Source: an uncultured Gammaproteobacteria bacterium
GTDB lineage: Bacteria; Pseudomonadota; Gammaproteobacteria; JBBQDK01
Reading direction: 5' to 3'
Length of the DNA: 64,000 nt
Assembly: GCA_963778665.1 (NCBI GenBank)
Contig: CAVZVG010000006.1
Span: forward strand, 396,358 to 460,357
This document shows positions 7,410 through 63,244 of this stretch, piece after piece (position 1 is the first letter of the stretch; each line of letters starts with the position of its first letter). The notes beneath the pieces are model-generated. The model saw only the letters and a list, made by a program, of their open reading frames with translations, was not told the origin of the DNA and ran no database searches. A program made the translations under genes and the position numbers.

Positions 7410-8669
<1,260 letters not shown>

Positions 8670-8765
8670 ATGTAGGGTGGGCAACTTGTTGCCCACGCGT
8701 GACCCACGCGATTCCGTCAAACCTTCACGTTACGCGTGGGCACGAACAACGTGCCCACCCTACAT
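8670..8765. repeat. Two inverted REP-like palindromic units (GTAGGGTGGGCA..TGCCCACGCGT) between the convergent rho and glgP genes
   Basis: Unit 1 at 8670-8700 is atgtagggtgggcaacttgttgcccacgcgt. The reverse complement of unit 2 at 8732-8765 is atgtagggtgggcacgttgttcgtgcccacgcgt. Each unit is itself a hairpin, and the two can pair to give a roughly 95-nt structure filling the whole intergenic gap. Confidence 0.8.
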
Positions 8766-8766
8766 G

Positions 8767-11247
8767 TTATTCATGCGCCACCGGCTTCACACCCCAGATC
8801 TGCTCGGCATATTCCCTGATGGTCCTGTCACTGGAGAACTTGCCCATATTGGCGACGTTCAGAATCGCCTTGCGGGTCCACTCCTGCGGTTCGCGGTACA
8901 ACGCGTCGACCTGTTCCTGACAGGCGACATACGAGGCGTAATCGGCCAGCAGCAGATATTGCTCGCCGGGCTGGGTGATGGCGTCGATCAGTGGCCGGTA
9001 ACGTGCCGGGTCACCCGGCGAGAAATAACCTGAGCCGATCATATCCAGCACCTGCTTCAGACGCTCATCGTCGCGATAGTAATCCCACGGATTGTAACCG
9101 CGCCGATGCACCTCCCTTACCTCATCGGCCGTCAGGCCGAAGATAAAGATGTTGTCCTCGCCCACCTCCTGACGGATCTCGATGTTGGCGCCATCCAAGG
9201 TGCCGATGGTCATGGCACCGTTCAGCGCCAGCTTCATGTTGCCGGTCCCCGAGGCCTCCGTGCCGGCCGTGGAGATCTGTTCGGAAAGATCAGCCGCCGG
9301 CACGATGTCCTCGGCGGTACTGACATCGTAGTTGGGTATGAACACCACCTTGAGCCGCTCGCCGATCACCGGGTCGTTGTTGATGATGTCGGCGACATCG
9401 TTGATGAGCCGGATGATCAGTTTGGCGCGCGCATAACCCGGTGCGGCCTTGCCGGCAAAAATGATGGTGCGCGGCACGCGCGGCGCGTTCGGATCGGCGC
9501 GCAACTGGTTATAGAGGGTGATCGCATGCAGGACATTGAGCATCTGGCGCTTGTACTCGTGGATGCGCTTGATCTGCACGTCGAACAGGGAATCCACATT
9601 GACTTCGACACCGATGTTATTGCGGATCAACCCGGCGAGATGATGTTTGGCGGAACGTTTGGCGGCGCGGAACTGCTCCTGGAAATGCGTATCCCTGGCC
9701 AGCTTCACCAGCTTGTGCAATTGGCCGAGGTCTGAGGTCCAGCCACGACCGATACGCTCGGATATCAGTGATGACAGCCAGGGATTGGCCTGATTCAGCC
9801 AGCGTCGCGGCGTGATGCCGTTGGTCTTGTTGACGATCTTGTCCGGAAAGTATTCGTCGAAGTCACGGAAAATGGTCTGCTTCATGAGGTCGGTGTGAAT
9901 TTGCGCCACGCCATTGACCTTGTGGCTGCCGACCATGGCAAGGTGCGCCATGCGTACCGAGCGCTCGCCCTCTTCGTTGATGATGGACATGCGCCTCAGT
10001 CGTTCGAAATCACCGGGAAAACGATGAATCACACCGCTCAGGAAGCGGCTGTTGATCTCGTAGATGATCTGCATGTGCCGCGGCAGAATGGTTTCCATCA
10101 GCCGCACCGGCCAGGTCTCCAGCGCCTCCGGCATCAGCGTGTGGTTGGTATAGGCGAAGGTTCGCACGGCGATGCCCCAGGCCTTGTCCCACTCCAGGTG
10201 ATGCATATCGATCAGAATGCGCATCAGTTCGGGGATGGCGATGGACGGGTGCGTATCGTTGAGCTGGATCGCCACCTTGTCCGGCAGTTCATCGAATGAA
10301 GAGTGGTATTTGCTGTAACGATGCAGGATGTCGTGCAGGGAACAACTGACGAAGAAATACTGCTGTTTGAGCCGCAGCTCACGGCCCATCTGGGTCGTGT
10401 CATCGGGATAAAGCACCTTGGACAGGTTCTCCGATTCGTTCTTGTCCGCGACCGCCTTGATGTAATTGCCTTCGTTGAAATATTTCAGGTCGAAATCGCG
10501 CGAGGCCTTGGCCGCCCAGAGCCGCAGATTGTTCACGGTGTTGGTGTTGTAGCCGGGGATGGGCGTGTCGTACGCCATGGCCATGACCTCCTCCGTGTCC
10601 ACCCAGTGATGGCGCAAAACGCCCTGCTCGTCCTGGTAATGCACCACACGGCCGAAGAATTTCACCGGATACAACACCTCCGGCCGCGGAAATTCCCAAG
10701 GGTTGCCATAGCGCAGCCAGTTGTCGGGATGCTCCACCTGAATGCCGTTTTCGATGCGCTGATGGAACATGCCGTATTCGTATCGGATGCCATAACCGTA
10801 GCCCGGCAGTCGCAGGGTCGCCATCGAGTCGAGAAAACAGGCGGCGAGACGGCCCAGTCCGCCATTGCCGAGCGCGGCATCGCTTTCCATCTCGCGCAAC
10901 TGCTCCAGATCAAGGTCCATGTCGGCGAGCGCCTCGCGGCACTCGTCGATGAAGCCCAGGTTCAACAGGCTGTTGCTCAGCGATCGCCCGATCAGAAACT
11001 CCAGCGACAGGTAGTAGACCCGCTTGGCGTCATAGCGGTAGTAATTGCGCATGGTTTCCATCCAGCGCTCGATCAGGCGATCGCGCACCGCATAGGCCAG
11101 GGTGAAGAACCAGTCGCGGGTCTTGGCGGTAATGTGATCCTTGCCGATGGTATAGACGAGGCGATTGGCGATGGAGCGCTTCAGCGATGCCGGGTCGGTC
11201 CCGAGATAGTCGTGCTTGTAGATACCGGGTTTGCGCTTCTTTTCCAT
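8767..11247 (-). CDS. glgP: Glycogen/maltodextrin phosphorylase
   Basis: 826 aa containing the PLP-site motif EASGTGNMKLALNG and alpha-glucan phosphorylase sequence throughout. Confidence 0.96.
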   Translation of the reverse strand: MEKKRKPGIYKHDYLGTDPASLKRSIANRLVYTIGKDHITAKTRDWFFTLAYAVRDRLIERWMETMRNYYRYDAKRVYYLSLEFLIGRSLSNSLLNLGFIDECREALADMDLDLEQLREMESDAALGNGGLGRLAACFLDSMATLRLPGYGYGIRYEYGMFHQRIENGIQVEHPDNWLRYGNPWEFPRPEVLYPVKFFGRVVHYQDEQGVLRHHWVDTEEVMAMAYDTPIPGYNTNTVNNLRLWAAKASRDFDLKYFNEGNYIKAVADKNESENLSKVLYPDDTTQMGRELRLKQQYFFVSCSLHDILHRYSKYHSSFDELPDKVAIQLNDTHPSIAIPELMRILIDMHHLEWDKAWGIAVRTFAYTNHTLMPEALETWPVRLMETILPRHMQIIYEINSRFLSGVIHRFPGDFERLRRMSIINEEGERSVRMAHLAMVGSHKVNGVAQIHTDLMKQTIFRDFDEYFPDKIVNKTNGITPRRWLNQANPWLSSLISERIGRGWTSDLGQLHKLVKLARDTHFQEQFRAAKRSAKHHLAGLIRNNIGVEVNVDSLFDVQIKRIHEYKRQMLNVLHAITLYNQLRADPNAPRVPRTIIFAGKAAPGYARAKLIIRLINDVADIINNDPVIGERLKVVFIPNYDVSTAEDIVPAADLSEQISTAGTEASGTGNMKLALNGAMTIGTLDGANIEIRQEVGEDNIFIFGLTADEVREVHRRGYNPWDYYRDDERLKQVLDMIGSGYFSPGDPARYRPLIDAITQPGEQYLLLADYASYVACQEQVDALYREPQEWTRKAILNVANMGKFSSDRTIREYAEQIWGVKPVAHE

Positions 11248-11484
11248 TGCCTTTCCTCATCTTGCCAAGGAACACGGAGATAAAAAGTGCCGCACAGAGT
11301 GGCGGACATCTTGACGGCACTCCAGTTATCTTGCAACTACAAGGCCAGAGTGGTGGGTCGGCGTTGATTTGAACGGCGAACGACGCGCAGCGCCAATCAG
11401 CGTCAAGGAAAGCTACTGATGGTGCCGAAGGAGACTGCACACGGGTGAAGGGGGTGTTGGGGCGATTTTCAAGAACTTTGAATT

Positions 11485-11519
11485 TTCTTGGCGCTCTTGG
11501 CGTTCTTGGCGGTTCAATT
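11485..11519. repeat. REP-like repeat, family B (ttcttggcg[ct]tcttggcg..ttggcggttcaa)
   Basis: The sequence is ttcttggcgctcttggcgttcttggcggttcaatt, directly downstream of pdxT. The same motif recurs at 14553-14590 (reverse), 14689-14725 and, degenerate, at 16324-16350. Confidence 0.7.
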
Positions 11520-11524
11520 CCTTG

Positions 11525-12082
11525 TCATAACCCGCGCAGGAACTCAGCATGCACGCGCCGGTCCGTTGACAGTTCCGGATGGAAAGTGGCGGCCATCAAT
11601 TGACCCTGTCGCACCCAGACCGGATCGCCGTCGCAGCTCGCCAACACCTCGACGCCGGGTCCGACACGGGTGATGCGCGGCGCGCGGATGAACACCAGCT
11701 CCAGTGGTTCACCGCCAAGATGGGTATCGACCTGATGAATGGCACTTTGCAACTGTCGGCCATAGGCATTGCGCCGCACGCTGATATCGAGCGCCCCGAG
11801 ACACTGCTGCACGGGATTTTCGACTTCGCTGGCCAGCAGGATGGCGCCGGCACAGGTACCGAAAGCGGGCTTGCTGCGGACAAAGCCGCGCAACTTCTCC
11901 CAGAAGTTGTCACGATCGAGAAAATTCAGGAAGGTACTGGATTCACCGCCCGGGATCACCAGCGCGGCGATTTCGTCCAGTTGTTCGGGCTTGCGCACCA
12001 GCCGCACCCTTGCACCCAAGTCTTGCAAACAGCGGCAGTGCGCATCGTAGTCGCCTTGCAGCGCCAGCACACCGACCGTCAT
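11525..12082 (-). CDS. pdxT: Pyridoxal 5'-phosphate synthase glutaminase subunit PdxT
   Basis: 185 aa. MTVGVLALQGDY...LVIPGGESSTF is the class I amidotransferase PdxT/YaaE signature. The gene is adjacent to pdxS. Confidence 0.92.
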   Translation of the reverse strand: MTVGVLALQGDYDAHCRCLQDLGARVRLVRKPEQLDEIAALVIPGGESSTFLNFLDRDNFWEKLRGFVRSKPAFGTCAGAILLASEVENPVQQCLGALDISVRRNAYGRQLQSAIHQVDTHLGGEPLELVFIRAPRITRVGPGVEVLASCDGDPVWVRQGQLMAATFHPELSTDRRVHAEFLRGL

Positions 12083-12094
12083 CGGTGACTCCGA

Positions 12095-13012
12095 TTACCA
12101 GCCGCGCTTTTGCAGCAGTTCCGTATCGGCAAGGCCGGCCACGGCCAGACCCTTCATGGCACCGACCAGATCCTCGGAGACTTCCAGCAGTACCGCCGGA
12201 TCCTCGAAATGCGTGGAGGCGCGGACGATGGCGCGGGCGCGACGTTCGGCCTCGGCCGGCGCGCAGAAATCCATCGAGTCCTTCATGAAGATACCCGAGC
12301 CGACGAACACCGCCTCGGCGCCCAGCTGGCGCACCAGCGCGGCATCGGCCGGCGTGGCGATGCCGCCGGCGGAGAAATTCGGTACCGGCAGCTTGCCGGT
12401 GCGCGCCACCATGCGGACCAGTTCATACGGCGCCTGCAGTTCCTTGGCACGGGCATAGAGTTCCTGTTCGTCCAGCACGGTGAGCACCCGCATATCGTTG
12501 ACGATGGCGCGCAGATGTTTGACAGCGTGCACGACGTCGCCGGTGCCGGCCTCGCCCTTGGTGCGGATCATGGCCGCACCTTCGGCGATGCGCCGCAACG
12601 CCTCGCCGAGATTGCGCGCGCCGCACACGAACGGTACCCGGAAGGCGTGCTTGTCGACGTGGTGGGCTTCATCGGCGGGTGTCAGCACTTCGGATTCATC
12701 GATGTAATCGACGCCGAGTTCCTGAAGAATCTGCGCTTCGGCGAAATGACCGATGCGGCACTTGGCCATGACCGGAATGGACACCGTTGACATGATTTCG
12801 CGGATCTTCTTCGGCGAGGCCATGCGCGCCACGCCGCCTTCGGCGCGAATCTGCGCGGGCACGCGCTCCAGGGCCATGACGGCGGTGGCGCCGGCGCGCT
12901 CGGCGATCTCGGCCTGGCGGGCATCGGTCACGTCCATGATCACGCCGCCCTTGAGCATCTCGGCAAGACCGGTCTTGAGGCGCAGCGAAGTAGGTTCGTT
13001 GGATTGCGGCAT
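12095..13012 (-). CDS. pdxS: Pyridoxal 5'-phosphate synthase lyase subunit PdxS
   Basis: The start is set at [28 protein letters not shown] (ATG at 13012). The upstream 100 codons of the 405-aa track ORF are Arg/Pro-rich and do not look like protein. The sequence is classic PdxS/SNZ throughout. Confidence 0.93.
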
Positions 13013-13239
13013 AGTGGACTCTAGTGTTGACGTCCCCGGAGGGAGGTGGGGATAAACCGGACGGTATTGTAGCATCCAATCGCTCAAGTAGTGGGAATTG
13101 GCTTGGCGGGTGGAGCGGCGGGAACGGCGTACTTGCGGCGCCCCGGAGACGACCGGCGGCCGTTTGGGGCGATCTGCGGACCTGAACCAACTGCGGGGAG
13201 CATGGCTGCCATGCGTCCGCACGGTTCCTTGACGATGGG

Positions 13240-14535
13240 TTACCGGGGCAGCGCTGATTCGCGGGCGATGGCACGGTAACCGATATCGGAACGGTGGAAC
13301 ATGCCTTGCCATTTTATCTGCCGCACCACTTCATAGGCGCGCGTCTGCGCGGCGCGCACACTGGTACCCAGGGCGCACACACACAGGACGCGGCCGCCGG
13401 TGGTGACCACCTGATCGTCCTTGAGTGCGGTACCGGCATGAAAGACCTTGGCATCGGGCGCATCGTGCTGTGGCAGTCCGCTGATGACATCGCCTTTGCG
13501 ATAGCCGGCCGGATAGCCGCCCGCGGCCAGCACCACACCGAGCGCCGGCCGTGGATCCCAATCGGCCTGCACCTGATCGAGGCGCTGATCGAGCGCGGCT
13601 TCACAGAGCAGCGTGAGATCGGAGCGCAGCCGCAGCATGATCGGCTGGGTCTCGGGATCGCCCATGCGGCAGTTGAACTCCAGTACCTTGGGCGTGCCGT
13701 CCGGCGCGATCATCAGGCCGGCATAGAGAAAACCTGTGTACGGATGGCCGTCCGCCGCCATGCCGCGCAGCGTCGGCTCGATCACTTCGCGCATCACCCG
13801 CGCATGCATCGCCGGCGTCACGACCGGCGCGGGCGAGTAGGCGCCCATGCCACCGGTGTTGGGGCCCTGATCGTCGTCGTCGCGGGCCTTGTGGTCCTGT
13901 GAAGTCGCCAGCGCCAGCGCGTGCACGCCGTCGGCCATGACGATGAAGCTGGCCTCCTCACCGACCAGGAATTCCTCCACGACCACGCGCGCACCGGCCT
14001 CGCCGAAGGCATTGTCTTCCAGCATGCCGCGCACCGCATCCTGCGCTTCCTGCACGCTGTGCGCGACCACCACACCCTTGCCGGCCGCCAGACCATCGGC
14101 CTTCACGACAATCGGTGCGCCGACCTTGGCGATGTAAGCGCAGGCCAGTTCGGCATCGGTGAACACGCCGTAGGCGGCGGTGGGGATTTTATAGCGGGCG
14201 AGAAAATCCTTGGCGTAGGCCTTGGAACCTTCGAGCTGCGCCGCGGCCTGCACGGGGCCGAAACAACGCAAGCCGCTTGCCTGGAACGCATCGACCACAC
14301 CCAGAACCAGTGGCGCCTCGGGACCGACGATGGTCAGATCGATAGCCTGCGTGCGCGCAAAATCCAGCAACGCGGCGACATCGTCAGCAGGGATATCGAC
14401 ATTCTCGACCTTGGCCTCGCGCGCCGTGCCGGCATTGCCGGGCGCGACATAAACCTTGGTGACGCGCGCCACCTGCGCCACCCGCCATGCCAATGCATGT
14501 TCGCGACCGCCACCACCGATGATCAAAACTTTCAT
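13240..14535 (-). CDS. purD: Phosphoribosylamine-glycine ligase
   Basis: 431 aa starting [18 protein letters not shown], with an ATP-grasp GARS sequence. Confidence 0.97.
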
Positions 14536-42568: not shown

Positions 42569-44337
42569 CAACACCATCCGATCCGGCTGCGGCACCGCAA
42601 GAGTACGCCCTGGAGCTGCGGCAGGTCAGTCGCGCGTTCGTCACCGGACAACGCCGCGTCACCGCTTTGGACGACGTCAGTTTGCGCGTGCAGCACGGTC
42701 GGGTCACGGGGCTGATCGGACCTGACGGCGCCGGCAAGACCACCTTGATGCGTTTGGCCGCCGGCCTGCTCATTCCGGACAGCGGCAGTCTCAGCGTGCT
42801 CGGCCTGGACACCACCCGCGAAGCACTCGCCGTGCAGTCCAACATCGGCTATATGCCGCAGCGCTTCGGTCTGTACGAAGACCTGAGCGTGCAGGAGAAC
42901 CTCGATCTGTACGCCGACCTGCAAGGCGTACCGCACGCCGAACGCGCGGCACGCTACCGTGAACTGATGCACATGACCGGCCTCGCGCCCTTCACGCGGC
43001 GTCTGGCGGGACGCTTGTCCGGCGGCATGAAACAGAAACTTGGCCTGGCCTGTACTCTGGTGCGTCCGCCGCGGCTGTTGTTGCTCGATGAACCGACGGT
43101 CGGCGTCGACCCGGTGTCGCGCCGCGAGCTGTGGGCCATCGTCTACCGCTTGGTTAAGGAAGAGGCCATGAGCGTGCTGCTCAGCACCGCCTACCTGGAC
43201 GAAGCCGAGCGCTGCGGCGAGGTGATCCTGCTGCACGAAGGCCACGTACTGTGGACCGGCGTGCCGCAATCCTTCAGCGAGCGCGTGCAGGGACGCACCT
43301 ATGCCGTATCCGACCCAAAACTCAGCAAGCGCACTGTCCAGGAACGGCTCAGCCGTGCCAGCGATGTACTCGATGCCGTGATCCAGGGCGATCACGTGCG
43401 CGTTGTGATGCACACCGATGCCGCCCCGACGCTCGAGCAACTCCTGCCCGGGGAGCCGGACGCGCAACTGACAGCGGTAGCGCCGCGCTTCGAGGATGCC
43501 TTCATCGACCGCTTGAAATCCGGTCGGACGGACACGGCGCCCGTCGCGCAGACCGCGTCGACGCCGACACCGGCGACAAACGGTCCGGTCATCGAAGTGC
43601 GCAAGGTGCAGCGCCGCTTCGGCGATTTCTACGCGGTCAAGGATGTGAGTTTCGAGGTCCGGCGCGGCGAGGTATTCGGCCTGCTCGGCGCCAACGGCGC
43701 CGGCAAGACCACGACCTTCCGCATGCTCTGCGGCCTACTGCCGGCGAGTGGCGGCGAGTTGCGGGTGGCCGGCCTGGACCTGCGCATCGCCGCGGCGGCG
43801 GCACGGGCACGCATCGGTTATATGTCGCAGAAATTCTCGCTGTACGGTCATCTCACCGTGAACGAAAACCTGGGCTTCTTCGCCAGCTGTTATGGACTCA
43901 ACGGTGAACGGCAGCGGACACGCATCGACTGGGCGCTCGAGGAATTCGAGTTGCAGTCCAGCGCCGATGCGGTCAGCGCCGATCTGTCGCTCGGGTACAA
44001 GCAGCGGCTGGCACTGGCCAGTGCCTTGATGCACGAACCGGAGATCCTGTTTCTCGATGAACCGACGTCGGGCGTAGATCCGCTGGCACGGCGTGAATTC
44101 TGGCAGCGCATCAACGCGCAGGCGGAGCGCGGCGTGACCGTGCTGGTCACCACGCATTTCATGGAAGAGGCCGAGTATTGCGACCGGCTGGCGATCATGG
44201 CCGCCGGCGAGATACTGACACTCGGCACACCGGCAGAGATCAAGGTGGCCGCACGCACCGCTGAAAAGCCCGATCCGACGATGGAAGATGCCTTCATCGA
44301 GCTGATAGAAGCCCACGAACGCACCGAGGCGGCCTGA
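42565..44337 (+). CDS. ABC transporter ATP-binding protein with duplicated ATPase domains (YbhF-like)
   Basis: Two Walker A motifs (GPDGAGKTT, GANGAGKTT), two LSGG signatures (LSGGMKQK, and the variant LSLGYKQR) and two Walker B motifs (LLLDEPT, LFLDEPT). Confidence 0.93.
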   Translation: MTTPSDPAAAPQEYALELRQVSRAFVTGQRRVTALDDVSLRVQHGRVTGLIGPDGAGKTTLMRLAAGLLIPDSGSLSVLGLDTTREALAVQSNIGYMPQRFGLYEDLSVQENLDLYADLQGVPHAERAARYRELMHMTGLAPFTRRLAGRLSGGMKQKLGLACTLVRPPRLLLLDEPTVGVDPVSRRELWAIVYRLVKEEAMSVLLSTAYLDEAERCGEVILLHEGHVLWTGVPQSFSERVQGRTYAVSDPKLSKRTVQERLSRASDVLDAVIQGDHVRVVMHTDAAPTLEQLLPGEPDAQLTAVAPRFEDAFIDRLKSGRTDTAPVAQTASTPTPATNGPVIEVRKVQRRFGDFYAVKDVSFEVRRGEVFGLLGANGAGKTTTFRMLCGLLPASGGELRVAGLDLRIAAAAARARIGYMSQKFSLYGHLTVNENLGFFASCYGLNGERQRTRIDWALEEFELQSSADAVSADLSLGYKQRLALASALMHEPEILFLDEPTSGVDPLARREFWQRINAQAERGVTVLVTTHFMEEAEYCDRLAIMAAGEILTLGTPAEIKVAARTAEKPDPTMEDAFIELIEAHERTEAA

Positions 44338-45500
44338 TGACGGACACCACCGACAAAACTCATCAAGGCACCGCCGCACGCGGTGGCGGAGCGATGCGTT
44401 TGCGCGGTTTGGTACGCAAGGAGTTTCTGCAGGTGCTGCGCGATCCGAGCAGCATCGCCATCGCCTTTCTGATGCCGGTGGTGCTGCTGTTGTTGTTCGG
44501 TTATGGCGTGTCGCTGGATGCCGAACACGTGCCGGTCGCCATCGTGGTCGAACAGCCGAGCGCCGACACGGCGAGCTTCACGGGCGCTTTTCAGCATTCC
44601 CGCTATTTTGCGCCGCTCATGCTGCGCGACCTGCCCAGCGCGGAAGCGGCACTGGCGGCGCATCGCGTCGAAGGCATCGTGCACCTGCGCAGTGATTTCG
44701 CCCGGCAACTGCGTCGCTCCGACGGCGCGCCGGTGCAGGTGATCGTCAATGGCGTGGATGCCAACACCGGGCGCATCATCATCGGTTATGTCGAAGGCCT
44801 GTGGGGCAACTGGCTGGAGCAATCCAGCAGGGCACGCGGCCATAAACCGGATATCCCCGTGCAAATCGAGCAACGGGTCTGGTTCAACAGCGAACTGCGC
44901 AGCCGCAACTTCCTGGTACCGGGTCTGATCGCGGTGATCATGACGCTGATCGGCGCACTGCTGACGGCCATGGTGATGGCGCGCGAATGGGAACGCGGCA
45001 CGATGGAGGCGCTGATGGTCACCCCGGTGGCGATGCGCGAAGTGCTGATCGGCAAGATCATTCCCTATTTCGTACTGGGCATGGGCGGCATGATCCTGAC
45101 CGTGATCATGGCGACATGGCAGTTCGAAGTGCCGCTGCGCGGGTCCGTGTGGGTGCTGCTGGCGGCCTCGGCGCTGTTCCTGCTGGTGGCGCTGGGCATG
45201 GGTCTGCTGATCTCCATCGTCGCCAAGAATCAGTTCGTCGCCGGCCAGATCGCCGTGATCGTCACCTTCCTGCCGGCCTTCATCCTGTCGGGTTTCATCT
45301 TCGATATCGCCAGCACGCCGACGGTCGTGCAGTTCATCACCCATATCATCGCGGCGCGTTATTTCGTGGCCATCCTGCAGACCGTCTTCATGGCCGGCAA
45401 TGTCTGGAGCGTGATTCTGCCGAATGCGCTGGCCCTGGCGCTGATGGCGGGGGTGTTTCTGATGTTGATCCGGCGCCGCGCGCGCAAGCGGCTGGACTAG
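44337..45500 (+). CDS. ABC-2 type transporter permease (YbhS-like)
   Basis: 387 aa with an N-terminal TM segment, a large periplasmic loop and a C-terminal ABC-2 membrane domain. Its start overlaps the ATPase stop by 1 nt. Confidence 0.9.
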   Translation: MTDTTDKTHQGTAARGGGAMRLRGLVRKEFLQVLRDPSSIAIAFLMPVVLLLLFGYGVSLDAEHVPVAIVVEQPSADTASFTGAFQHSRYFAPLMLRDLPSAEAALAAHRVEGIVHLRSDFARQLRRSDGAPVQVIVNGVDANTGRIIIGYVEGLWGNWLEQSSRARGHKPDIPVQIEQRVWFNSELRSRNFLVPGLIAVIMTLIGALLTAMVMAREWERGTMEALMVTPVAMREVLIGKIIPYFVLGMGGMILTVIMATWQFEVPLRGSVWVLLAASALFLLVALGMGLLISIVAKNQFVAGQIAVIVTFLPAFILSGFIFDIASTPTVVQFITHIIAARYFVAILQTVFMAGNVWSVILPNALALALMAGVFLMLIRRRARKRLD

Positions 45501-45509
45501 GGGAAGCGC

Positions 45510-46619
45510 ATGTGGCAACGCATCCTGGCGCTGGTGAAGAAGGAGTTTCTGTCGATCTTCAAGGACAAGAAGAGCCGCTTCGTGATCATCGGCCCGCCGA
45601 TCATCCAGCTGCTGGTATTCGGCTACGCGGCGACCTTCGATCTCAATCATGTCGCGTATGCCATCTACAACGAGGATCATGGTGCGGCATCGCGCCAGTT
45701 GCTGGCGCGCTTTGCAGGCTCGCCGAACTTTCAACTGGTCACGCAACTGCAAAACGAAACGCAGGTCGCACCGCTGATCGATGACAAGCGGGTCCTGCTG
45801 CTGGTGCATTGCGGTCCCCGCTTCAGTGCCGATCTGGCGCGCGGCCGGCCGGCCAAGCTGCAGCTGATCGTCGACGGGCGCGACTCCAATACGGCGCTGC
45901 TGGTGCTGAATTACGCGCGCGGCATCGTCACGCAATTCAATCAGGACTGGGCCCGCGATCACGGCCGCAGCCTGCCACCCATCCGTCTCGAGACGCGCGC
46001 CTGGTACAACCCCAATCTGGTGAGCCGCTGGTTCATCGTCCCGGGCATCGTCGGTCTCCTGACACTGGTGGTGACCTTGCTGGTGACGGCACTGTCGGTC
46101 GCGCGCGAACGCGAGCAAGGCACCTTCGATCAGCTGCTGGTGACGCCGCTGCGTCCGGTGGAAATCCTGATCGGCAAGGCGCTGCCGGGTTTCATCATCG
46201 GACTGGCCGAGGCCTCGGTCATCATCTTTCTCGCCGTGAACTGGTTCCATGTCCCCCTGCTGGGACATCTGGCGACCTTGTACCTCGGTCTGGCCTTGTT
46301 CCTGCTGTCGGCGATCGGCGTGGGCCTCATGATCTCCTCGCTGGCCGTGACCCAGCAGCAGGGCTTGCTGGGTGCCTTCCTGTTTCTGGTGCCCTCCATC
46401 ATTCTCTCGGGCTTCGCCACGCCGATCGCGAACATGCCCACGGCGGTGCAGTACCTGACCTTCATCAACCCGATGCGTTATTTCATGGTGGTGCTGCGCG
46501 GCCTGTTTCTGGAAGACACGCCGTTTGCGCTGCTGGTGCAGCAGTTCTGGCCGATGGCGCTGATCGGCCTGGTGACCCTGGCACTGGCCGGCTGGCTGTT
46601 CCGCCATCGTATGTATTGA
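45510..46619 (+). CDS. ABC-2 type transporter permease (YbhR-like)
   Basis: 369 aa, a paralogue of the preceding permease (MWQRILALVKKEFLSIFKDKKSRF...). Confidence 0.9.
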   Translation: MWQRILALVKKEFLSIFKDKKSRFVIIGPPIIQLLVFGYAATFDLNHVAYAIYNEDHGAASRQLLARFAGSPNFQLVTQLQNETQVAPLIDDKRVLLLVHCGPRFSADLARGRPAKLQLIVDGRDSNTALLVLNYARGIVTQFNQDWARDHGRSLPPIRLETRAWYNPNLVSRWFIVPGIVGLLTLVVTLLVTALSVAREREQGTFDQLLVTPLRPVEILIGKALPGFIIGLAEASVIIFLAVNWFHVPLLGHLATLYLGLALFLLSAIGVGLMISSLAVTQQQGLLGAFLFLVPSIILSGFATPIANMPTAVQYLTFINPMRYFMVVLRGLFLEDTPFALLVQQFWPMALIGLVTLALAGWLFRHRMY

Positions 46620-46636
46620 AATGCTCAGTCGGATAT

Positions 46637-47825
46637 TCAGTCGGATCGGACAGTCCCGCGCATACCAATCGAGAACACCGCCGCGCCGGCCAGCAGGATC
46701 GCCGCCAGCATGGTGAAGGCGCTGGTGTAACCGTAGGCGCCGACCACCCACCCGGTCAGCACCGGACCCAGCGCCTGGCCGATATCCATCACCGTCGCCA
46801 TCACGCCCAAGGATGCACCGTACGCGCCATGCTGCGTGAGGTCGGCCACCAGCGCCCTGGTGGATGAGGTCACCGTGGCGAAACCAATGCCATAGACAAG
46901 GCTGAGCAATGCCAAGCCCGGGAAAGCTGCTGATGTGCGGCAGGATCAGCAGACTGAGGCTGCCGATCAGCAGGCCGGGCAGGATCACCTGCGTCCGGCC
47001 GATACGGTCCGACAGACGACCCATGAGCGGTTTGGCAACGACGATACACAGCAACTGCGCACCCAGGATCACGCCGATCCGCCAGGGCGAAAGACCTTGA
47101 GCGGCGGCGTACAAGACCAGGAAGGCCTCCAGCGCGCCGAAGGTCAGATATTGCGCAGCCTCGCTCAGGCTGGCCGCGACGATACGCCGGTCGCGCAACA
47201 CCGGCCGCAGACTGGCGATCAGGCTAGTGCGGGGATTGGCCGCCGGTGTCGTTGCGGCTGCCTTGCGCTCACCGTCCCCGTCGCGCAAGCTCAGTCCCAC
47301 GGCCAGCGCCAAGGCCCCGCCCACCGCGCAGACCAGATAAACCGCACGGATACCGGCCAGCGACAACAATGCACCGCCCACAAACGGCGCGAGGGAACGG
47401 CCGACAATCGTCGCCGATGAAAATTCAGACAGACGCGCCGCACGATCGCGCTGGTAGCGCTGCGCAATCGCCGCACTCGCCACGGTGCCGAACACGGCGG
47501 TCGCGAAGCCGTGATAAAAACGCACCGCTGCCAACTGCCAGGCGGTGTGCACGAGCAGATACAGCCAGGGCGCGCTGGCGAAGATGAACAAGGCCGCGAC
47601 CAGCAGGCGCCGCTGCCCGAAGCGATCGGACAGCACGCCGGCGGGAAAACTCATCAGAATCCCCGGCACTGTCGAGGCCATGATGATCCAGCCGATCTGT
47701 CCCGGATTCGCACCGAGCGACTGTGCGAACAAGGGCAGCACCGGCGACTTGGACAAGGTGGAACTGAAGATCGCCAAGGCGCCGCACAGTGCCAGCAGGA
47801 AGAAAAAGGACAGCGCGTTGCGCAT
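46637..47825 (-). pseudogene. MFS transporter with an apparent 1-nt frameshift at the CCCGGG/AAA run 46917-46925
   Basis: The N-terminal roughly 300 codons are the first part of the 1326-aa track ORF (MRNALSFFFLLALCGALAIF...GVLSDRFGQRRLL...HISSFPGLG). The C-terminal 92 codons are ORF 46637..46915 (ALLSLVYGIGFATVTSS...). Removing one base in ttcccggg gives ...HISSFPGLALLSLVYGIGFA... Confidence 0.8.
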
Positions 47826-47903
47826 GCGGTATCGGGATCGTCCGTCTTGAGGGAGATGCGAGTCTAGCACTGCCGAAGCGTGTTCAACGTGCGCGGTCGC
47901 GCA

Positions 47904-53256: not shown

Positions 53257-53418
53257 TGTTGTTTTGTGGCGAATACTGACCCAGGTTTTGCATCGAATTT
53301 TGACCCGGTAATAAAGCTTTAAAGATACTGTTTGCCAGGTTTGTTTGTTGATTCACTGGTCCAGTCATTGATGCAAAAAAACTTTCGACATGGCTCATTC
53401 TCAGGCGCAAACCAACAA
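53257..53418 (-). mobile_element. MITE-like repeat, copy R1 (most diverged)
   Basis: 162 bp bounded by tgttgttttgtggc...ggcgcaaaccaacaa. It aligns by hand along its whole length with 54843-55003 and, reverse-complemented, with 62918-63078 and 63085-63244. Confidence 0.75.
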
Positions 53419-54055: not shown

Positions 54056-54472
54056 GTGAAAAATCGCGGCATGCATTTTACTCGTGAAGAATTGGCGGAG
54101 GCCGGGGTATCGGGATTTTTCGCCATCGTAAAGGAATGGGGTCTGAGCCAAGAAGAATCGAGGACGCTACTTGGCAACATTAGTCATGGCCGTTTCGACG
54201 CACTTCAAATGGGTGATCCAACCACCCTGAGCACACTGTCCGATGATGAGCTTGATCGCCTAGCCTATATCACAGGCATCTATGCCGCGCTCAACAGTCT
54301 CTATACGCCTGCGAGCCACTCGGAGTGGTTGCGCAACAAAAGCAGGTTGTCTGCCGAGGCGATGTATCGACCCTGGGGGACTGGATCACCGCTCGATTTT
54401 TTGCTGACCGGCAAGTTCATCGCGTTGGCGGACGTTTACGCGCACTTGAATTCCATCGGGGGTGTGTCATGA
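54056..54472 (+). CDS. Xre-like / DUF2384 (MbcA-ParS type) antitoxin
   Basis: The N-terminal HTH-like segment reads FFAIVKEWGLSQEESRTLLG. The C-terminal segment reads EWLRNKSRLSAEAMYRPWGTGSPLDFLLTGKFIALADVYAHLNSIGG. It matches the W...N..l.g..Pl..l.t..G...V...L pattern of RES-partner antitoxins (from memory). Confidence 0.65.
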   Translation: MKNRGMHFTREELAEAGVSGFFAIVKEWGLSQEESRTLLGNISHGRFDALQMGDPTTLSTLSDDELDRLAYITGIYAALNSLYTPASHSEWLRNKSRLSAEAMYRPWGTGSPLDFLLTGKFIALADVYAHLNSIGGVS

Positions 54473-54842: not shown

Positions 54843-55003
54843 TGTTGTTTTGCAGCGAACACTGACCCAGGATTTGCATGAATTTTGACCGTGACATAAC
54901 GCTTCAAAGTTACTGTTCTCCAGTAATGCATGTTTATGTACTGGTCCAGTCCTCGATGCAAATAAATTATCGAAATGGCTCAATCTCAGGCGCAAAACAA
55001 CAA
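54843..55003 (-). mobile_element. MITE-like repeat, copy R2
   Basis: 161 bp. The left end is tgttgttttgcagc and the reverse complement of the right end is ttgttgttttgcgcc, giving an 11-nt identical terminal inverted repeat TGTTGTTTTGC. Confidence 0.8.
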
Positions 55004-55977: not shown

Positions 55978-56343
55978 ATGGAACTGAGAGATTTTATTAA
56001 GACGAGCCTGGTTGAGATTTGCTTGGCCATTGATGACGCAAACAAAGCACTGGCGGGTAGTGAGGCAATCATTAATCCGGGATGCATTCAGGTCAACTCA
56101 GAAGAATCCCAAGCTTTCGGTCGTCAAAGCAATAAAGCAATACATGAAGAGCGGAAACTTGTACACAAAGTAGATTTCGATGTCGCCGTCTATGCCCAGG
56201 AAGGCGAAAAGGCTGGCGGCGGTGCGAAGATCTCTGTCGCCTCCATCGGGTTTGGTGTAAATGCTGAGACATCTACTACAAACAAGTCAGAAACACGACT
56301 GAAGTTTTCAATTCCCGTAATCTATCCGGAAGGGAAGGCATAA
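55978..56343 (+). CDS. Small protein resembling the trypco2 effector-associated domain (121 aa)
   Basis: GGAGAG serves as RBS. An N-terminal helix (MELRDFIKTSLVEICLAIDDANKAL) is followed by the beta-rich segment VDFDVAVYAQEGEKAGGGAKISVASIGFGVNAETSTTNKSETRLKFSIPV. This matches my recollection of trypco2-family sequences. Confidence 0.6.
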   Translation: MELRDFIKTSLVEICLAIDDANKALAGSEAIINPGCIQVNSEESQAFGRQSNKAIHEERKLVHKVDFDVAVYAQEGEKAGGGAKISVASIGFGVNAETSTTNKSETRLKFSIPVIYPEGKA

Positions 56344-56488: not shown

Positions 56489-56646
56489 GCTGTGTCAAAA
56501 CAAAACTTTTAAACACAATCTCGACGAGGCGACCTCACCAGATGCGTTATGAACAACGATCTCGGATGAGGTAATGGTTTTGGGACCCCTGCTTTCGAGC
56601 TGATTTTGAGTTTTTACACGCCCTGGACCATTTCCGGCCGTTCGCA
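56482..56646 (+). repeat. Left arm of a roughly 165-bp inverted repeat bracketing the lipoprotein gene
   Basis: The left arm reads ggccgaggctgtgtcaaaacaaaacttttaaacacaatctcgacgaggcgacctcaccagatgcgttatgaacaacgatctcggatgaggtaatgg...ccggccgttcgca. Its reverse complement aligns by hand with 58077-58240 along the whole length, with scattered mismatches. Confidence 0.8.
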
Positions 56647-56874: not shown

Positions 56875-57870
56875 ATGAATAAGAGGAATATGGATATGAC
56901 TAAAATGTTAGCAATCAGCGTCACTTTGCTCGCATTTTCAGTATTCAGCAGCTCATGTAGCAAAGAACAGCATCCTCAGATGGGGTATTCTATTTTTCAG
57001 AATGCCACCTTGTTTCATGTCGAGTTAATTGATAGCAAAACACTTCTTGTGGATGGGGATTTCATCAATCCTCTTCAAAGACGCGGCACATACAAAGTGC
57101 CACTATCCTCAATTGAAAACCCTGCGACATATACTTTTATCGCGAATATTTATCAGGACCCCGTAGTGGGTAGTTCTGGTCCAACTGAGGTAAAAGGATA
57201 TTACGGAGACGACTATTTACTTCTTAGTGGATACACACCAAGCCAAGGAATGATCCAAGGTAGCGTCGTGGGGCGTTATGATATTAAATCACATAAACTC
57301 ACATTGTTAACGCCGGATAATGACTATTATTTCGAACTGGGATTTACCCGAAACAAAAGCGCAGTATTACTGAGCCACAAGAAACTGATTCGTACTACAC
57401 ACGGATCCTACGTAAGGTCGGATATACCAACATTGATAGAACTAGATTTAGCCTCCGGAGCACAAAAAACAGTATTCGAGTCTCCCGAATTTCACTACAG
57501 CAGAGAAGCTTCAGATCTTATTTGTCCGCCATTTCAGAACGCATCTGGATCATCGAGCGGCAAGTATATAGTCATCTTAGGGAGAAGAAACGGGGGTGGG
57601 TGCGCTCCATATTTAATTACAAATCCACAATCTGTGGATCAGCAAATTGCTCCGATCTTAGTCTTGGATACTGCGGGAACGACCATATGGTATCCGAACG
57701 AACAGAACTTCCTGATGGTGTGCGGTAACTCGATCGGATGTAAATACAACGCACAAGGAAGCCTTGTGAAGATGTACGAATTTCCTTACAAAGGTTTCTA
57801 TTTGGCCGATTATGACCCCAAAACGGATACGGTACTCCTGGTCCACCATCACGGGCGGGCCAATTGTTGA
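56875..57870 (+). CDS. Putative lipoprotein (331 aa), most AT-rich gene in the window
   Basis: Signal peptide with lipobox (MLAISVTLLAFSVFSSSC). The remainder is beta-rich with repeated GxY/D motifs. No family recognised. Start ambiguous (in-frame Met at 56875, 56890, 56896 and 56905). Confidence 0.7.
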   Translation: MNKRNMDMTKMLAISVTLLAFSVFSSSCSKEQHPQMGYSIFQNATLFHVELIDSKTLLVDGDFINPLQRRGTYKVPLSSIENPATYTFIANIYQDPVVGSSGPTEVKGYYGDDYLLLSGYTPSQGMIQGSVVGRYDIKSHKLTLLTPDNDYYFELGFTRNKSAVLLSHKKLIRTTHGSYVRSDIPTLIELDLASGAQKTVFESPEFHYSREASDLICPPFQNASGSSSGKYIVILGRRNGGGCAPYLITNPQSVDQQIAPILVLDTAGTTIWYPNEQNFLMVCGNSIGCKYNAQGSLVKMYEFPYKGFYLADYDPKTDTVLLVHHHGRANC

Positions 57871-58076: not shown

Positions 58077-58240
58077 TGCGAACGGCGTATTTGGATCCAG
58101 GCTGTGTAATAACTCAGAATCATATTGAAAACGGGGGTCGCAAAACGATTACCTCATACGAGATCGTTGCTCATAGCGAATCTGGTGAGGTCACTTCGTC
58201 GAGCGTTTGAAAAAAGTTTTGTTTTTACACAACCTCGGCC
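58077..58240 (-). repeat. Right arm of the roughly 165-bp inverted repeat
   Basis: The right arm reads tgcgaacggcgtatttggatccaggctgtgtaataactcagaatcatattgaaaacgggggtcgcaaaacgattacctcatacgagatcgttgctcatagcgaatctggtgaggtcacttcgtcgagcg...gttttgtttttacacaacctcggcc. It is the reverse complement of the left arm. Confidence 0.8.
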
Positions 58241-58926
58241 GGTAATCGACCATTGTGGCTGGCTCCGCCTAATATGCAGAGTTCGACCCGCTCCCGCCGT
58301 TCGGGCTGGCGTATTAAATCACTGTCAATTTTCCCAACTCGGCCATTCGAGCTGGTACATAAACCTCCATCAAGCGCCCCAGGTTGCATTCTGAACACGC
58401 TCGCAAGAAGCTATGTACACAAAAACCGGCATCGGGAGCCATGGAATGCAACAACAAGCCGACATAATCCTCAAGCAATCATGCTCCATTTGAAAAATGA
58501 TTTGGGCTCGTAGTGGGAACTTATGTTGTTGATTTGACTATCGGCAAAAGTGATAGGGAGCCCAATTACTCCGTTTGCAACGGAGCTTTTCGGCACCCCA
58601 TTAGTAGTTGCGCGCCGATAGGTAACACTTTCTGATAAAGATTATCGACAGGATCCTATGTCCAGGCACGAAAATAAATGTTACGAAGTGAAGGAAAAAC
58701 TGCGATTGAACGGGTTCAAGACGACAGTTTTCCTTTCCACTTCGTGCCATTCAGATTTTCGACCTTCCCATTGGCCCTGCAACAATCGAAAAGTCTGAAG
58801 AGTATCGACGCCCAACTACCGCACGAGTTGACGCGCAAACAACGCACGCAACTCAGCTCCCGTAGGTTAGACCCACTGAGATCTCATTTGCTCGCGCGCG
58901 GCCCCGCATTGTATAGGAAAGGAAGG

Positions 58927-61900
58927 ATGCAATTCGTCACCAACGGCCCCGACATTCCCGATGCGCTGTTGCAGGCGCACGAGGAGGGCCGCGTGGTGTT
59001 TTTCTGCGGCGCGGGCATTTCCTATCCGGCCGGCCTGCCGGGCTTCAAGGGGCTGGTGGAGGAGATCTACCGGCTGAACGGCACGACGCCCTCGGACATT
59101 GAGCGCGAGGCCTTCGACCGTGGGCAGTTCGACGCCACGCTCGATCTGCTGGAGCGACGCCTGCCGGGGCAGCGCCTTGCCGTCCGCCGTGCGCTGGCGC
59201 AGGCGCTGAAACCCAAGTTGCGCCGCAAGGGGGCCACCGATACGCAGGCGGCGCTGTTGCGGCTGGCGCGCAGCCGTGAGGGCGCGCTGCGGCTGGTCAC
59301 CACCAACTTCGACCGCGTGTTCCATACGGCGGCCAAACGCACCGGCCAAGCGTTCCAAGCCTATGCCGCGCCAATGCTGCCGATCCCGAAGAACAGCCGC
59401 TGGAACGGGCTGGTCTACCTGCACGGCCTGCTGCCCGAAAGGCGGACGACACGGCACTGAACCGTCTGGTGGTCACCAGCGGCGATTTCGGCCTGGCCTA
59501 CCTAACCGAACGCTGGGCGGCGCGCTTCGTGAGCGAGCTGTTCCGCAACTACGTGGTTTGCTTCGTTGGTTACAGCATCAACGACCCGGTGCTGCGCTAC
59601 ATGATGGATGCGCTGGCCGCCGACCGGATGCTGGGCGAAGTCACGCCGCAAGCCTGGGCGCTGGGCGACTGCGAGCCGGGGCAGGAGCACCGCAAGACCA
59701 TCGAGTGGGAAGCCAAGGGCGTCACGCCCATCCTCTACGAAGTGCCCGCCGGCAGCCACGACCATTCGGCGCTGCATCAAACCTTGCAAGTCTTGGGCAG
59801 ACACCTACCGCGACGGCGTGCTGGGCAAGGAGCGCATCGTCGTCAGACACGCCCTGGCGCGGCCTCGGCCAGTACGCAGCAAGACGACTTCGTCGGCCGG
59901 ATGCTGTGGGCCTTGTCGGACAAGTCGGGCTTGCCGGCCAAACGTTTCGCCGACTTCAATCCCGTCCCGTCGCTGGACTGGCTGCTGGAGGCCTTCTCGG
60001 ACGAGCGCTTTCGGCACGGCGATCTGGCTCGCTTTGGTGTTCCTCCACGCGACGAGGTGGACGCCAAATTGCGCTTCAGCCTGATTCGCCGGCCAGCGCC
60101 CTATGACCGCGCGCCACCGATGCTGCTGGCCTCCGGCGGCATCACCGGCAGCCAATGGGATGACGTGATGTTCCATCTGGCCCGCTGGCTAGTGCGACAC
60201 CTGGATGACCCAAGGCTGGTCATCTGGATCGCGCAGCGTGGCGGCCAGTTGCATTACCGCTGGCCGTGGCTGATCGAAGACAGAGCTGGATCGACTTTGC
60301 CTCATTGGAGCGCGATGGCAAGACCGCCGAACTGGACGAAATCCGTTTACAGGCGCCAAAGGCCATTCCCGGCCCCTTGATGCGCACGCTGTGGCGTCTG
60401 CTGCTCAGCGGCCGGGTGAAAACACCGTGGCAGCGATCCCGATCTCTATCGCTGGAAAGAGTCGGCTGAAGCGGGAGGGACTGACCACCACGCTACGCTT
60501 GGAGTTGCGCGATCTACTCGCCCCCCAGGTGGCCTTGAAGAAGCCGTTTCGCGCGAGCGAGGAGGCAGAGAGCACAGACGAGCCCACGCACTTGCGGCAA
60601 TTGGTGAACTGGGAGCTGGTGCTGGCCGCCGATCACGTGCATTCGGACCTGCGCGACCTTGCCGACGAGTACTGGACGTCTGCATTGCCGGCAGTTGCTG
60701 GAGGATCTTCAGCAACTTCTGCGTGATGCTCTGGATTTGTTGCGCGAGCTGGGTGCAGCCGACGACCGCATTGACCGATCGCACTGGGACCTGCCGTCGA
60801 TTACTCCGCACTGGCAGAACCGAGGTTTCCGCGACTGGGTAACCTTGATCGAATTGCTGCGTGATGCATGGCTGGCGGTTCGCAGCAATGACAGTGCTCG
60901 TGCGATGCGGATTGCCCAGGCCTGGTTCGAGTTGCCGTATCCCACCTTCAAACGACTAGCTCTGTTTGCCGCCAGCCGGGAGGCTGCATCGCACCCGAGC
61001 AATGGGTGGATTGGCTGTTGGTCGATGGCAGCTGGTGGCTGTGGTCCACGGATACGGGGCGTGAGGTGTTCAGACTATTGGTTCTGCAGGGGCACCAATT
61101 GGCAGGGGCTACTCAGGCAACGTCTGGAGGTCGCCATCTTGGCCGGCCCGCCGCGCGAGATGTACAGGGATGATCTGGAACCAGAACGGTGGCAAGACTT
61201 GGTGGCTCGTTCAGTCTGGCTGCATCTGGCCAAATTGAAGACCTCGGGCCTCGCACTGGGCGCTACCGCCCAGGCACGCTCGGAAGAGCTGTCCAATGCA
61301 TACCCGCAATGGCAGTTGGCGGCCAACGAGCGTGACGAGTTCTCCCACTGGATGAGTGGCACAGGCGATCCGGACTATGAAGACAGCCGGGATGTCGATA
61401 TCGCGCCTCGAAAACGACGCGAACTCGTTCAATGGCTCACAAAGCCACAACCCGAACGGCGACCCTTCTACGAGAACACGTGGCGCGACGTTTGCCGCAC
61501 CCGCTTCTTTCACAGCCTGTACGCGCTATGCGATCTGGCGCGGAATGGCGTATGGCCATCCGACCGATGGCGGGAGGCACTGCAGGCCTGGAGCGAAGAA
61601 GGAGTGGTGTTGCGGTCCTGGCAATACGCTGCACCACTGGTGCAGACCATGCCAGACACCGTTATCCAGGAAATTACCCCCGGTGTGACGTGGTGGATCG
61701 ACACTGTTTCGAAGTCGATTAATCAGCACGAGGAAATTCTACTGAACCTGTGCCGCCGCGTGTTGGCTCTGCCACTCGAAGCAGGAACCGGAAAGACTCG
61801 CAATGGTGAACCGATTGACCAACCTGTTACCGAGGCCATCAATCATCCGGTCGGGCATATCACGCAGGCGCTGATAAATCTTTGGTTCAAACGCAATCCG

Positions 61901-62755
61901 AACGACGACGATCTGATTCCCGCCGACATCAAGCCCTTCTTCACGGAAATCTGCAACGTGCAGGTGGACCGATTTCGTCACGGCCGGGTGCTACTTGGTT
62001 CGCAATTGATCGCACTCTTCCGCGTGGATCGAGCTTGGACCGAGCGATACCTGTTGCCCCTGTTCAGTTGGGACAATCGGGGCGAAGCGAAAGCTGTGTG
62101 GGAAGGTTTCCTGTGGTCGCCCCGCTTCTACCAGCCCTTGTTGGTTGCGTTCAAACCGCAGTTTCTGGAAAGCGCAAACCACTACGCCGACTTAGGTGAA
62201 CACCGCCAGCAGTTTGCAGCCTTCCTGACATACGTGGCGTTGGGGCCGATCGAGGGCTACACCGTGGATGAGTTCCGAGCCGCAATTGGAGCGCTGCCTC
62301 ATGAAGGGTTGGAGGAATCCGCTCAGGCGCTCTCTCAGGCCCTTGAAGGAGCAGCAGATCAGCGAGAGGACTATTGGAAGAACCGTGTCCAGCCGTTCTG
62401 GCAAGACGTTTGGCCAAAGTCCCGCGACCTCGCAACGCCGCGAATCGCCGAGTCATTGACCCGGCTGATCATTGCTGCCCGAGCTGAATTTCCCGCTGCG
62501 TTGAATGCAGTACAAGACTGGCTGCAACCCATTGAACATCCATATTACATCGTACATCTACTGCACGAATCAGGTTTGTGCGCACGATTTCCGGAGGATG
62601 CTCTGCGTCTGCTAAATGCTGTGATTACCGACCAACAGTGGGCACCCCGGGAGTTGGGGCAATGTTTGGACGAGATCGTGCAAGCCGCGCCACGGCTTGC
62701 ACAAGCTACCCGCCTCCTGCGGCTCCGAGAATATTCCCGTAGGCGCGGGATGTGA
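58927..62755 (+). pseudogene. SIR2-domain giant protein (DSR1-like defence-associated sirtuin, about 1275 codons) interrupted by about ten +/-1 frameshifts between 59439 and 61118
   Basis: AGGAAAGGAAGG RBS plus ATG 58927. The N-terminus is MQFVTNGPDIPDALLQAHEEGRVVFFCGAGISYPAGLPGFKGLV...TNFD...LHGLL...VVTSGDFG...FVGYSINDP, a SIR2_2-type NAD-binding domain. The track ORFs 58678-59460, 59469-60380, 59608-60084, 60266-60469, 60391-60726 and 60659-62755 join into one continuous protein-like sequence when shifted by one base at each junction. Confidence 0.8.
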
Positions 62756-62770
62756 TGACGATGTGAGTGA

Positions 62771-62827
62771 CGCCCCGTAATCAGGGGGGGTCTAACTCCA
62801 ACGTTATGAGTGACCGGTTACGGGGCG
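62771..62827 (+). repeat. 10-bp perfect inverted repeat just after the SIR2-gene stop (cgccccgtaa ... ttacggggcg)
   Basis: The arms are at 62771-62780 and 62818-62827 with a 37-nt spacer. The right arm is the start of the S2 repeat core. Confidence 0.6.
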
Positions 62828-62917: not shown

Positions 62918-63078
62918 TGTTGTTTTGTGCCTGAGATTGAGCCATTTCGATAATTTATTTGCATCGAGGATTGGACCAGTACATAAACAAGCAATACTGG
63001 AAAACAGTAACTTTGAAGCGTTATGTCAGGGTTAAAATTCGATGCAAATCCTGGGTCAGTATTAGCTGCAAAACAACA
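62918..63078 (+). mobile_element. MITE-like repeat, copy F1
   Basis: 161 bp, tgttgttttgtgcctgagattgagccatttcg...gggtcagtattagctgcaaaacaaca. It is in tandem with F2, 6 nt apart. Confidence 0.8.
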
Positions 63079-63084
63079 GATACA

Positions 63085-63244
63085 TGTTGTTTTGCGCCTG
63101 AGATGAGCCATTTCGATTATTTATTTGCATCGAGGACTGGACCAGTACATATACAAGCAATACCGGAAAACAGTAACTTTGAAGCGTTATGTCAGGGTCA
63201 AAATTCATGCAAATCCTGGGTCAGTGTTTGCCGCAAATCAACAA
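63085..63244 (+). mobile_element. MITE-like repeat, copy F2
   Basis: 160 bp, tgttgttttgcgcctgagatgagccatttcg...gggtcagtgtttgccgcaaatcaacaa. It is nearly identical to F1. Confidence 0.8.

Follow-up and report, generated by a model that had tools for sequence, protein, structure and literature searches.

The window analyzed here, a 64,000-nt stretch of contig CAVZVG010000006.1 from an uncultured Gammaproteobacteria bacterium, carries on its forward (+) strand a single gene for the anti-phage sirtuin Dsr1 (58927-62755) whose reading frame is broken by ten single-nucleotide insertions and deletions (indels). All ten are clustered within 1.7 kb, their spectrum is unusual, and no other decay accompanies them. 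The ten indels are probably explained by a locally poor consensus sequence.

Reading frame and identity of the gene

Three-frame translation of 58900-62760 gave a conserved-looking protein that switches between frames. With intact relatives as references, frameshift-aware protein-to-DNA alignment ran from 58927 to 62752 as one gene, which has 1274 codons once its ten frame changes are repaired; profile tiling and the family score given below support the same coding region (58927..62755, +). Nucleotide alignment with eight relatives resolved each frame change into a 1-nt indel, namely seven insertions (59791, 60282, 60294, 60433, 60460, 60690, and 61118) and three deletions (after 59438, 59864, and 60984), which together delimit a damaged stretch at 59438..61118 (+). 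The same alignments placed no frameshift in the first 511 nt (58927-59437) or in the last 1637 nt (61119-62755) of the gene. The original prediction had read six open reading frame (ORF) pieces as one gene of about 1275 codons, with about ten indels in 1.7 kb and none in the other 2.1 kb. Its junctions, for which a frameshift-aware protein comparison had been proposed as a check, were confirmed against the intact relatives and agree in position within a few bases; the nucleotide alignment further showed that what had been left as one or two events at 60283-60300 is two events and that 61105-61118 holds one.

As written, the gene encodes little of the protein. Translation from the ATG at 58927 ends at a stop at 59458..59460 (+) after 177 codons, as seen in both the ORF list and the three-frame translation. 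The first frameshift falls five codons beyond the catalytic histidine, inside the SIR2_2 NADase domain (59293..59732, +; aa 123-269, as in intact relatives), and splits the Pfam match (PF13289) into profile positions 3-51 in the frame of the ATG and 58-141 in the next frame. Downstream of the damage, the C-terminal 545 codons of the sensor region (61119..62755, +) are undamaged in the three-frame translation and in the frameshift-aware alignment, and the public annotation calls a 538-aa protein within this part.

The frame-repaired protein of 1274 aa scored 2144.2 bits against NCBIfam NF041818 ("anti-phage defense-associated sirtuin Dsr1"), an equivalog model with a curated cutoff of 1400 bits, and its residues 1-1270 covered profile positions 1-1263 of 1263. 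The product of an intact relative, locus L007, scored 2155 bits end to end on the same model and 2510 bits on the PADLOC Dsr1 profile, of which the unrepaired pieces from the window cover positions 1-173, 183-453, and 588-1274. The repaired protein is identical to the L007 product at 1137 of 1274 positions (89%, the closest intact relative found), and no closer allele was present in the collections searched. The SIR2 motifs GAGIS, TTNFD, and YLHG are all present, and the catalytic asparagine in TTNFD (~59305-59307) and catalytic histidine in YLHG (~59422-59424) are invariant in 72 sequences. Homology to relatives continues along the whole sensor region of about 900 aa. Judged by its sequence, the gene is thus canonical Dsr1 itself; the prediction of a SIR2 defense gene was correct, and its wording, DSR1-like, was too cautious.

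The identity of such genes and the mechanism of the Dsr1 family are already known. DSR1 is a single-protein defense that depletes NAD+ upon infection, the depletion being transient in the case that was examined (bioRxiv 10.1101/2021.12.14.472415), and its C-terminal TPR-repeat, bilobed sensor, which is common to Avs7, is reported to recognize phage major capsid proteins (PMC12803255). The window gene resembles Escherichia coli EcDsr1 (WP_029488749.1) in its end-to-end homology after repair, its N-terminal SIR2_2 domain, its ~900-aa sensor, and its organization as a single gene, and differs by the ten frameshifts, which leave only a 177-aa N-terminal fragment encoded. Bacillus subtilis DSR2, whose sensor binds a phage structural protein (PMC10981675, PMC11087589), has the same layout of an N-terminal SIR2 NADase and a large C-terminal sensor, but the window gene has no sequence match to it beyond the SIR2 fold: PADLOC matches at E<=0.01 included Dsr1 models only and no Dsr2 model, and among solved structures neither a Dsr1-family structure nor a DSR2 chain was matched by sequence. 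Thoeris ThsA and SIR2-HerA have a SIR2 NADase effector in common with the window gene, which gave marginal SIR2-domain scores (20.7 bits for ThsA and about 15 bits for generic SIR2 models). No ThsB or HerA partner gene adjoins Dsr1, and the neighboring ORFs are without such domains.

The normal state of the Dsr1 family

Relatives were scanned with one genome per species, and the 80 Dsr1 loci obtained (L007-L086, 76 of them complete) came from Proteobacteria, Nitrospirota, Planctomycetota, Cyanobacteria, Chlorobium, and a Firmicute bin. An uninterrupted ORF of about 1274 codons was found in 71 of the 76 complete loci, and each of the other five had a single lesion. The gene was also present in 91 complete E. 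coli genomes, in which 72 near-full-length copies aligned unbroken; the near-full-length copies sampled had in-frame lengths, and the few disrupted copies were truncations (H32, H33). Among the roughly 150 genes examined, the Dsr1 with ten frameshifts is unique, and the window copy is an outlier within its family.

Where relatives carried a single lesion, it always fell on a short run or repeat: a C4 that became C5, an AA shortened to A, a GG shortened to G (two cases), a slip in a (GC)n tract, or an A8 run. Four loci outside the scan illustrate how the gene can appear broken. In L001 the frame changes at codon 300, where a G is lost from AAGGAA. The sole frame change in L002 lies on an A8 run at codon 372 (8031-8038), for which slippage or sequencing error is possible. 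The metagenome scaffold L003 has a run of Ns at codon 332 (~3478), which suggests that assemblers also struggle in the same part of Dsr1 in mixed samples. The Dsr1 of Paraburkholderia sp. Clong3 (L004) has an in-frame stop at codon 506 (5983-5985) and a frame change near its C-terminus; in contrast to the window copy, it is probably a genuine natural pseudogene because it adjoins IS21- and IS66-family transposase genes (8249-14160).

Spectrum and clustering of the indels

The inserted base equaled neither of its neighbors in five of the seven insertions (60282 A, 60294 A, 60433 G, 60460 A or G, and 61118 C), and slippage therefore cannot yield those five. Of the gene's four homopolymers that reach at least 5 nt (T5, G5, C6, and C5), none is affected, not even the C6 run inside the damaged stretch. 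Sequencing error or slippage of the homopolymer type was rejected, since no indel fell in a run of that length.

The damaged stretch makes up 44% of the gene. If ten events were placed uniformly, the probability that they would span no more than 1680 of 3829 nt is 0.0036. Indel density was about 6 per kb in the stretch vs. 0.03 per kb elsewhere in the window, and the Poisson probability relative to the window background, with its two other frameshifts across the remaining 60 kb, was ~8e-20. Indel-dominated, insertion-biased, and context-random errors at such density are typical of an unpolished or low-coverage long-read consensus.

The background itself was screened by self-trained codon-usage tiling, which passed a positive control by recovering the frame switches of Dsr1; candidates were confirmed by Pfam. 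This screen located the two further frameshifts that the original prediction had noticed, both on the minus strand: a DEAD-box helicase split between its DEAD and Helicase_C domains (~5896; gene at 5443-6619) and an MFS transporter interrupted beyond profile position 290 (~46900-46920; 46673-47831). Neither site is a long homopolymer. Two is a minimum, and further frameshifts are possible, especially in the low-GC island described below. Two more candidates were explained as ordinary gene pairs (dusB-fis and aroQ-accB). The 1326-aa ORF at 43890-47870 (-) is not one gene; the MFS transporter is its 5' part only (46920-47831), and the remainder is an open antisense frame over plus-strand genes that have a strong coding signal at 44328-45497 and 45504-46616.

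Absence of decay in the damaged gene

The repaired window protein was aligned with 71 intact relatives, and 340 columns were invariant, allowing for one deviating sequence at most. At none of these columns, 163 of which lie in the damaged stretch, did the window have a private amino-acid change, whereas the counts for the relatives ranged from 0 to 31. At the nucleotide level, the window had no private change at the 489 invariant columns of the damaged stretch and one gene-wide, compared with a median of four gene-wide for the relatives. The ratio of nonsynonymous to synonymous substitution (dN/dS) in the damaged stretch was 0.09-0.13 between the window and relatives and 0.09-0.14 between intact relatives. 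The invariant-column counts and dN/dS rule out an old decaying pseudogene.

The count of substitutions can also be set against the count of indels. Three substitutions for each indel would predict about nine changes at the invariant nucleotide columns, and the probability of finding none would be ~2e-4, so that zero private substitutions is compatible only with a substitution:indel ratio below ~1:1. Bacterial mutation-accumulation data give about ten substitutions per indel.

Origin of the ten indels

Of the explanations that the original prediction offered, a locally poor consensus is the one that the evidence favors, and we consider it the probable cause. The deposited consensus would then contain errors in a locally low-quality patch (59438-61118), which may have arisen from low long-read coverage, from a stretch missed by short-read polishing, or from a single-pass gap fill. 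The indels would be absent from the organism, and the real Dsr1 gene would probably be intact and functional. The assembly is not free of indels elsewhere, because the helicase and MFS core genes are also frameshifted.

Several points weigh against a technical cause, which is inferred from the deposited sequence. Two frameshifts in about 50 core genes are just mildly above what real genomes show, and the window has no N or ambiguity code. No second copy of the damaged stretch, which would have explained a failure of polishing, was found inside the window. Exact-protein look-ups and two metagenome DNA scans did not find the same allele elsewhere and so provided no near-identical comparator. Natural inactivation is frequent among defense genes with toxic effectors, and the cassette's own attC, described below, looks degraded, which fits a decaying relic.

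These last points bear on the possibility that Dsr1 became inactive in this lineage, its cassette having very recently acquired ten real single-base indels, much as the original prediction had suggested in proposing very recent inactivation of a toxic NADase. We consider such a genuine pseudogene rather unlikely. The indels do stand in the deposited sequence, NADase defense genes can be costly, and single lesions occur in about 5 of 76 relatives, as do truncated copies in E. coli. The 3' attC of the cassette is incomplete, and the gene lies in a foreign low-GC island with no integrase or promoter context identified in the window. However, one frameshift already inactivates the gene, and nine neutral extras should have brought many substitutions, of which none was detected. 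The indels are insertion-biased, often non-templated, and homopolymer-avoiding, unlike slippage and unlike the lesions of the relatives, and their confinement to less than half of the gene is not predicted by neutral decay. Recent inactivation is thus disfavored by the clean background and by the spectrum.

A variant of the poor-consensus idea is that reads from several Dsr1 alleles were merged and that spurious indels arose in the better-conserved part of the gene. The cassette is promiscuous, with versions of 82-88% nucleotide identity present in six phyla or more, and several alleles in one sample are therefore conceivable. The first ~770 codons are better conserved at the nucleotide level than the remainder, and the N gap in the metagenomic relative L003 falls in the same region. 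Such a mixed template is nonetheless distinctly improbable, since identity to the nearest relatives is steady through the damaged stretch, the same relatives are nearest gene-wide, and the first 170 codons are equally conserved yet clean. That the damaged stretch is a mosaic or a product of recombination was likewise rejected; L018, L007, L012, and L062 are nearest along the whole gene, with 87-94% identity.

A real, indel-specific process confined to a 1.7-kb tract of a defense gene is highly improbable. It might involve repeated breakage and end-joining that gains or loses one base at a time, or error-prone synthesis over a patch, and would leave no substitutions behind. Hypervariability of the stretch in the population, the third explanation of the original prediction, is not supported by the comparison of sequences: the stretch belongs to the better-conserved part of the family, and among the 71 intact relatives only 28 of its 568 alignment columns bear gaps.

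Recoding by programmed frameshifting, or a natural arrangement as separate SIR2 and sensor genes, has next to no chance of being correct, although protein searches at first appeared to favor it. A search with the clean C-terminal 544 aa gave 697 matches, and the best 120 were all 922 aa or shorter and without a SIR2 domain; the first loci examined, L001 and L002, have a SIR2 ORF of about 366 aa that overlaps an ORF of 912-922 aa. This early sample was biased to broken or contig-truncated genes. The best 120 matches comprise contig-truncated or broken ORFs and no full-length protein of ~1274 aa, and many short proteins of relatives are merely cut by contig ends (e.g., L006), whereas the genome DNA holds mostly intact genes. 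The shift sites differ among L001, L002, L003, and L004, the ten sites in the window share no slippery motif, the out-of-frame segments contain stop codons, and the uninterrupted genes in 71 of 76 complete loci refute both readings. Frame toggling by compensating shifts was rejected: the segments read out of frame are long and include stops, and a net shift of +1 leaves the frame unrestored.

Dsr1 as an integron-type cassette

The gene is preceded by an attC site (58810..58872, +; 63 nt, R'' GCCCAAC and R' GTTAGAC), the bottom strand of which folds as a typical attC hairpin. Nucleotide homology to five relatives (L016, L033, L043, L046, and L062) starts exactly at GTTAGAC, which matches the GTTRRRY core, 61 nt before the ATG, and the start of the Dsr1 cassette therefore lies inside the R' box of the preceding attC. 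At the other end, 35 nt after the stop codon, the R'' core of the cassette's own attC (GTCTAAC at 62790..62796, +; consensus RYYYAAC) equals the reverse complement of the upstream GTTAGAC exactly. Within 170 nt of 62790-62796 neither an R' to match it (GTTRRRY) nor a hairpin followed, and the cassette's own attC in the window is incomplete.

Relatives from very different phyla show what a complete site looks like, on one side of the gene or on both. In L033 and L034 this R'' recurs at an equal distance and leads into a complete attC of 59-60 nt, and across L033, L034, L043, L050, L031, L036, and L041 the R'' continues into a complete attC of 59-110 nt. The attC hairpins of the two relatives that were folded had energies of -18 to -20 kcal/mol. 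Further attCs flank Dsr1 or form an array in four relatives: an array of four in L033 (7668-7727, 10079-10204, 10587-10689, and 11380-11478), two in L034 (3619-3717 and 7636-7693), and one each in L036 (3655-3753) and L046 (3646-3755).

From these boundaries, Dsr1 appears to be a gene that moves as an integron-type cassette of about 3.9 kb. Such mobility fits the nucleotide identity of 82-88% among Dsr1 genes across these phyla, which is accompanied by a protein identity of 65-87%. Synonymous differences (pS) were 0.24-0.54 between the closest relatives compared, and the pattern points to recent and repeated horizontal transfer of Dsr1. Defense systems carried as integron cassettes are a known category (bioRxiv 10.1101/2024.07.02.601719). 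The window Dsr1 agrees with that category in being bounded by core sites and preceded by an attC hairpin, and differs in its large size, the incompleteness of its own attC, and the lack of an integrase seen in the window. No integrase domain was detected in the island ORFs scanned, and motif and fold scans of 51-64 kb, which also missed the true site at 58810, found no further canonical attC. No paper naming Dsr1 as an integron cassette was found in the literature searched.

The low-GC island and its repeats

From about 52 kb to the end of the window the GC content is 44-50%, vs. 58-66% in the core. The Dsr1 gene, at 58-69% GC, lies inside this low-GC island. The island ORFs are small, mostly on the plus strand, and mostly without a Pfam match; weak matches were obtained to an Xre-like helix-turn-helix (54056-54469) and to Trypco2 (55978-56340). 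The window proteins are singletons at 90% identity in a large protein collection, and the organism is thus without a close sequenced relative there.

A ~160-nt repeat bounded by terminal inverted repeats (TGTTGTTTTG...CAAAACAACA) is present four times in the island, twice in tandem on the plus strand directly downstream of Dsr1 (62918-63078 and 63085-63243) and twice inverted (53257-53417 and 54843-55002). The repeat looks like a miniature inverted-repeat transposable element or a repetitive extragenic palindrome-like element, and its termini do not conform to the consensus of attC cores. A separate pair of 131-nt inverted repeats (56497-56627 and 58096-58226; 79% complementary) encloses a 331-aa ORF (56875-57870), which begins like a signal peptide or lipoprotein and lacks a Pfam match.

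Implications for the organism and the Dsr1 family

If the frameshifts are technical, they matter for annotation only, and the organism probably has a working Dsr1. Automated pipelines would then mis-call the gene as fragments or as a pseudogene, and the 538-aa piece has already been called publicly. If the frameshifts are real, the gene has suffered an unusually clean, tenfold indel damage without other decay, which would suggest that a targeted mutational process, so far unknown, was at work. Were an indel-only process true, it would constitute a previously undescribed silencing or scrambling of a toxic immune gene. The occurrence of Dsr1 as an attC-flanked cassette of ~3.9 kb in very distant phyla has some value independent of the cause of the indels, since it fits the role of integrons as stores of anti-phage genes.

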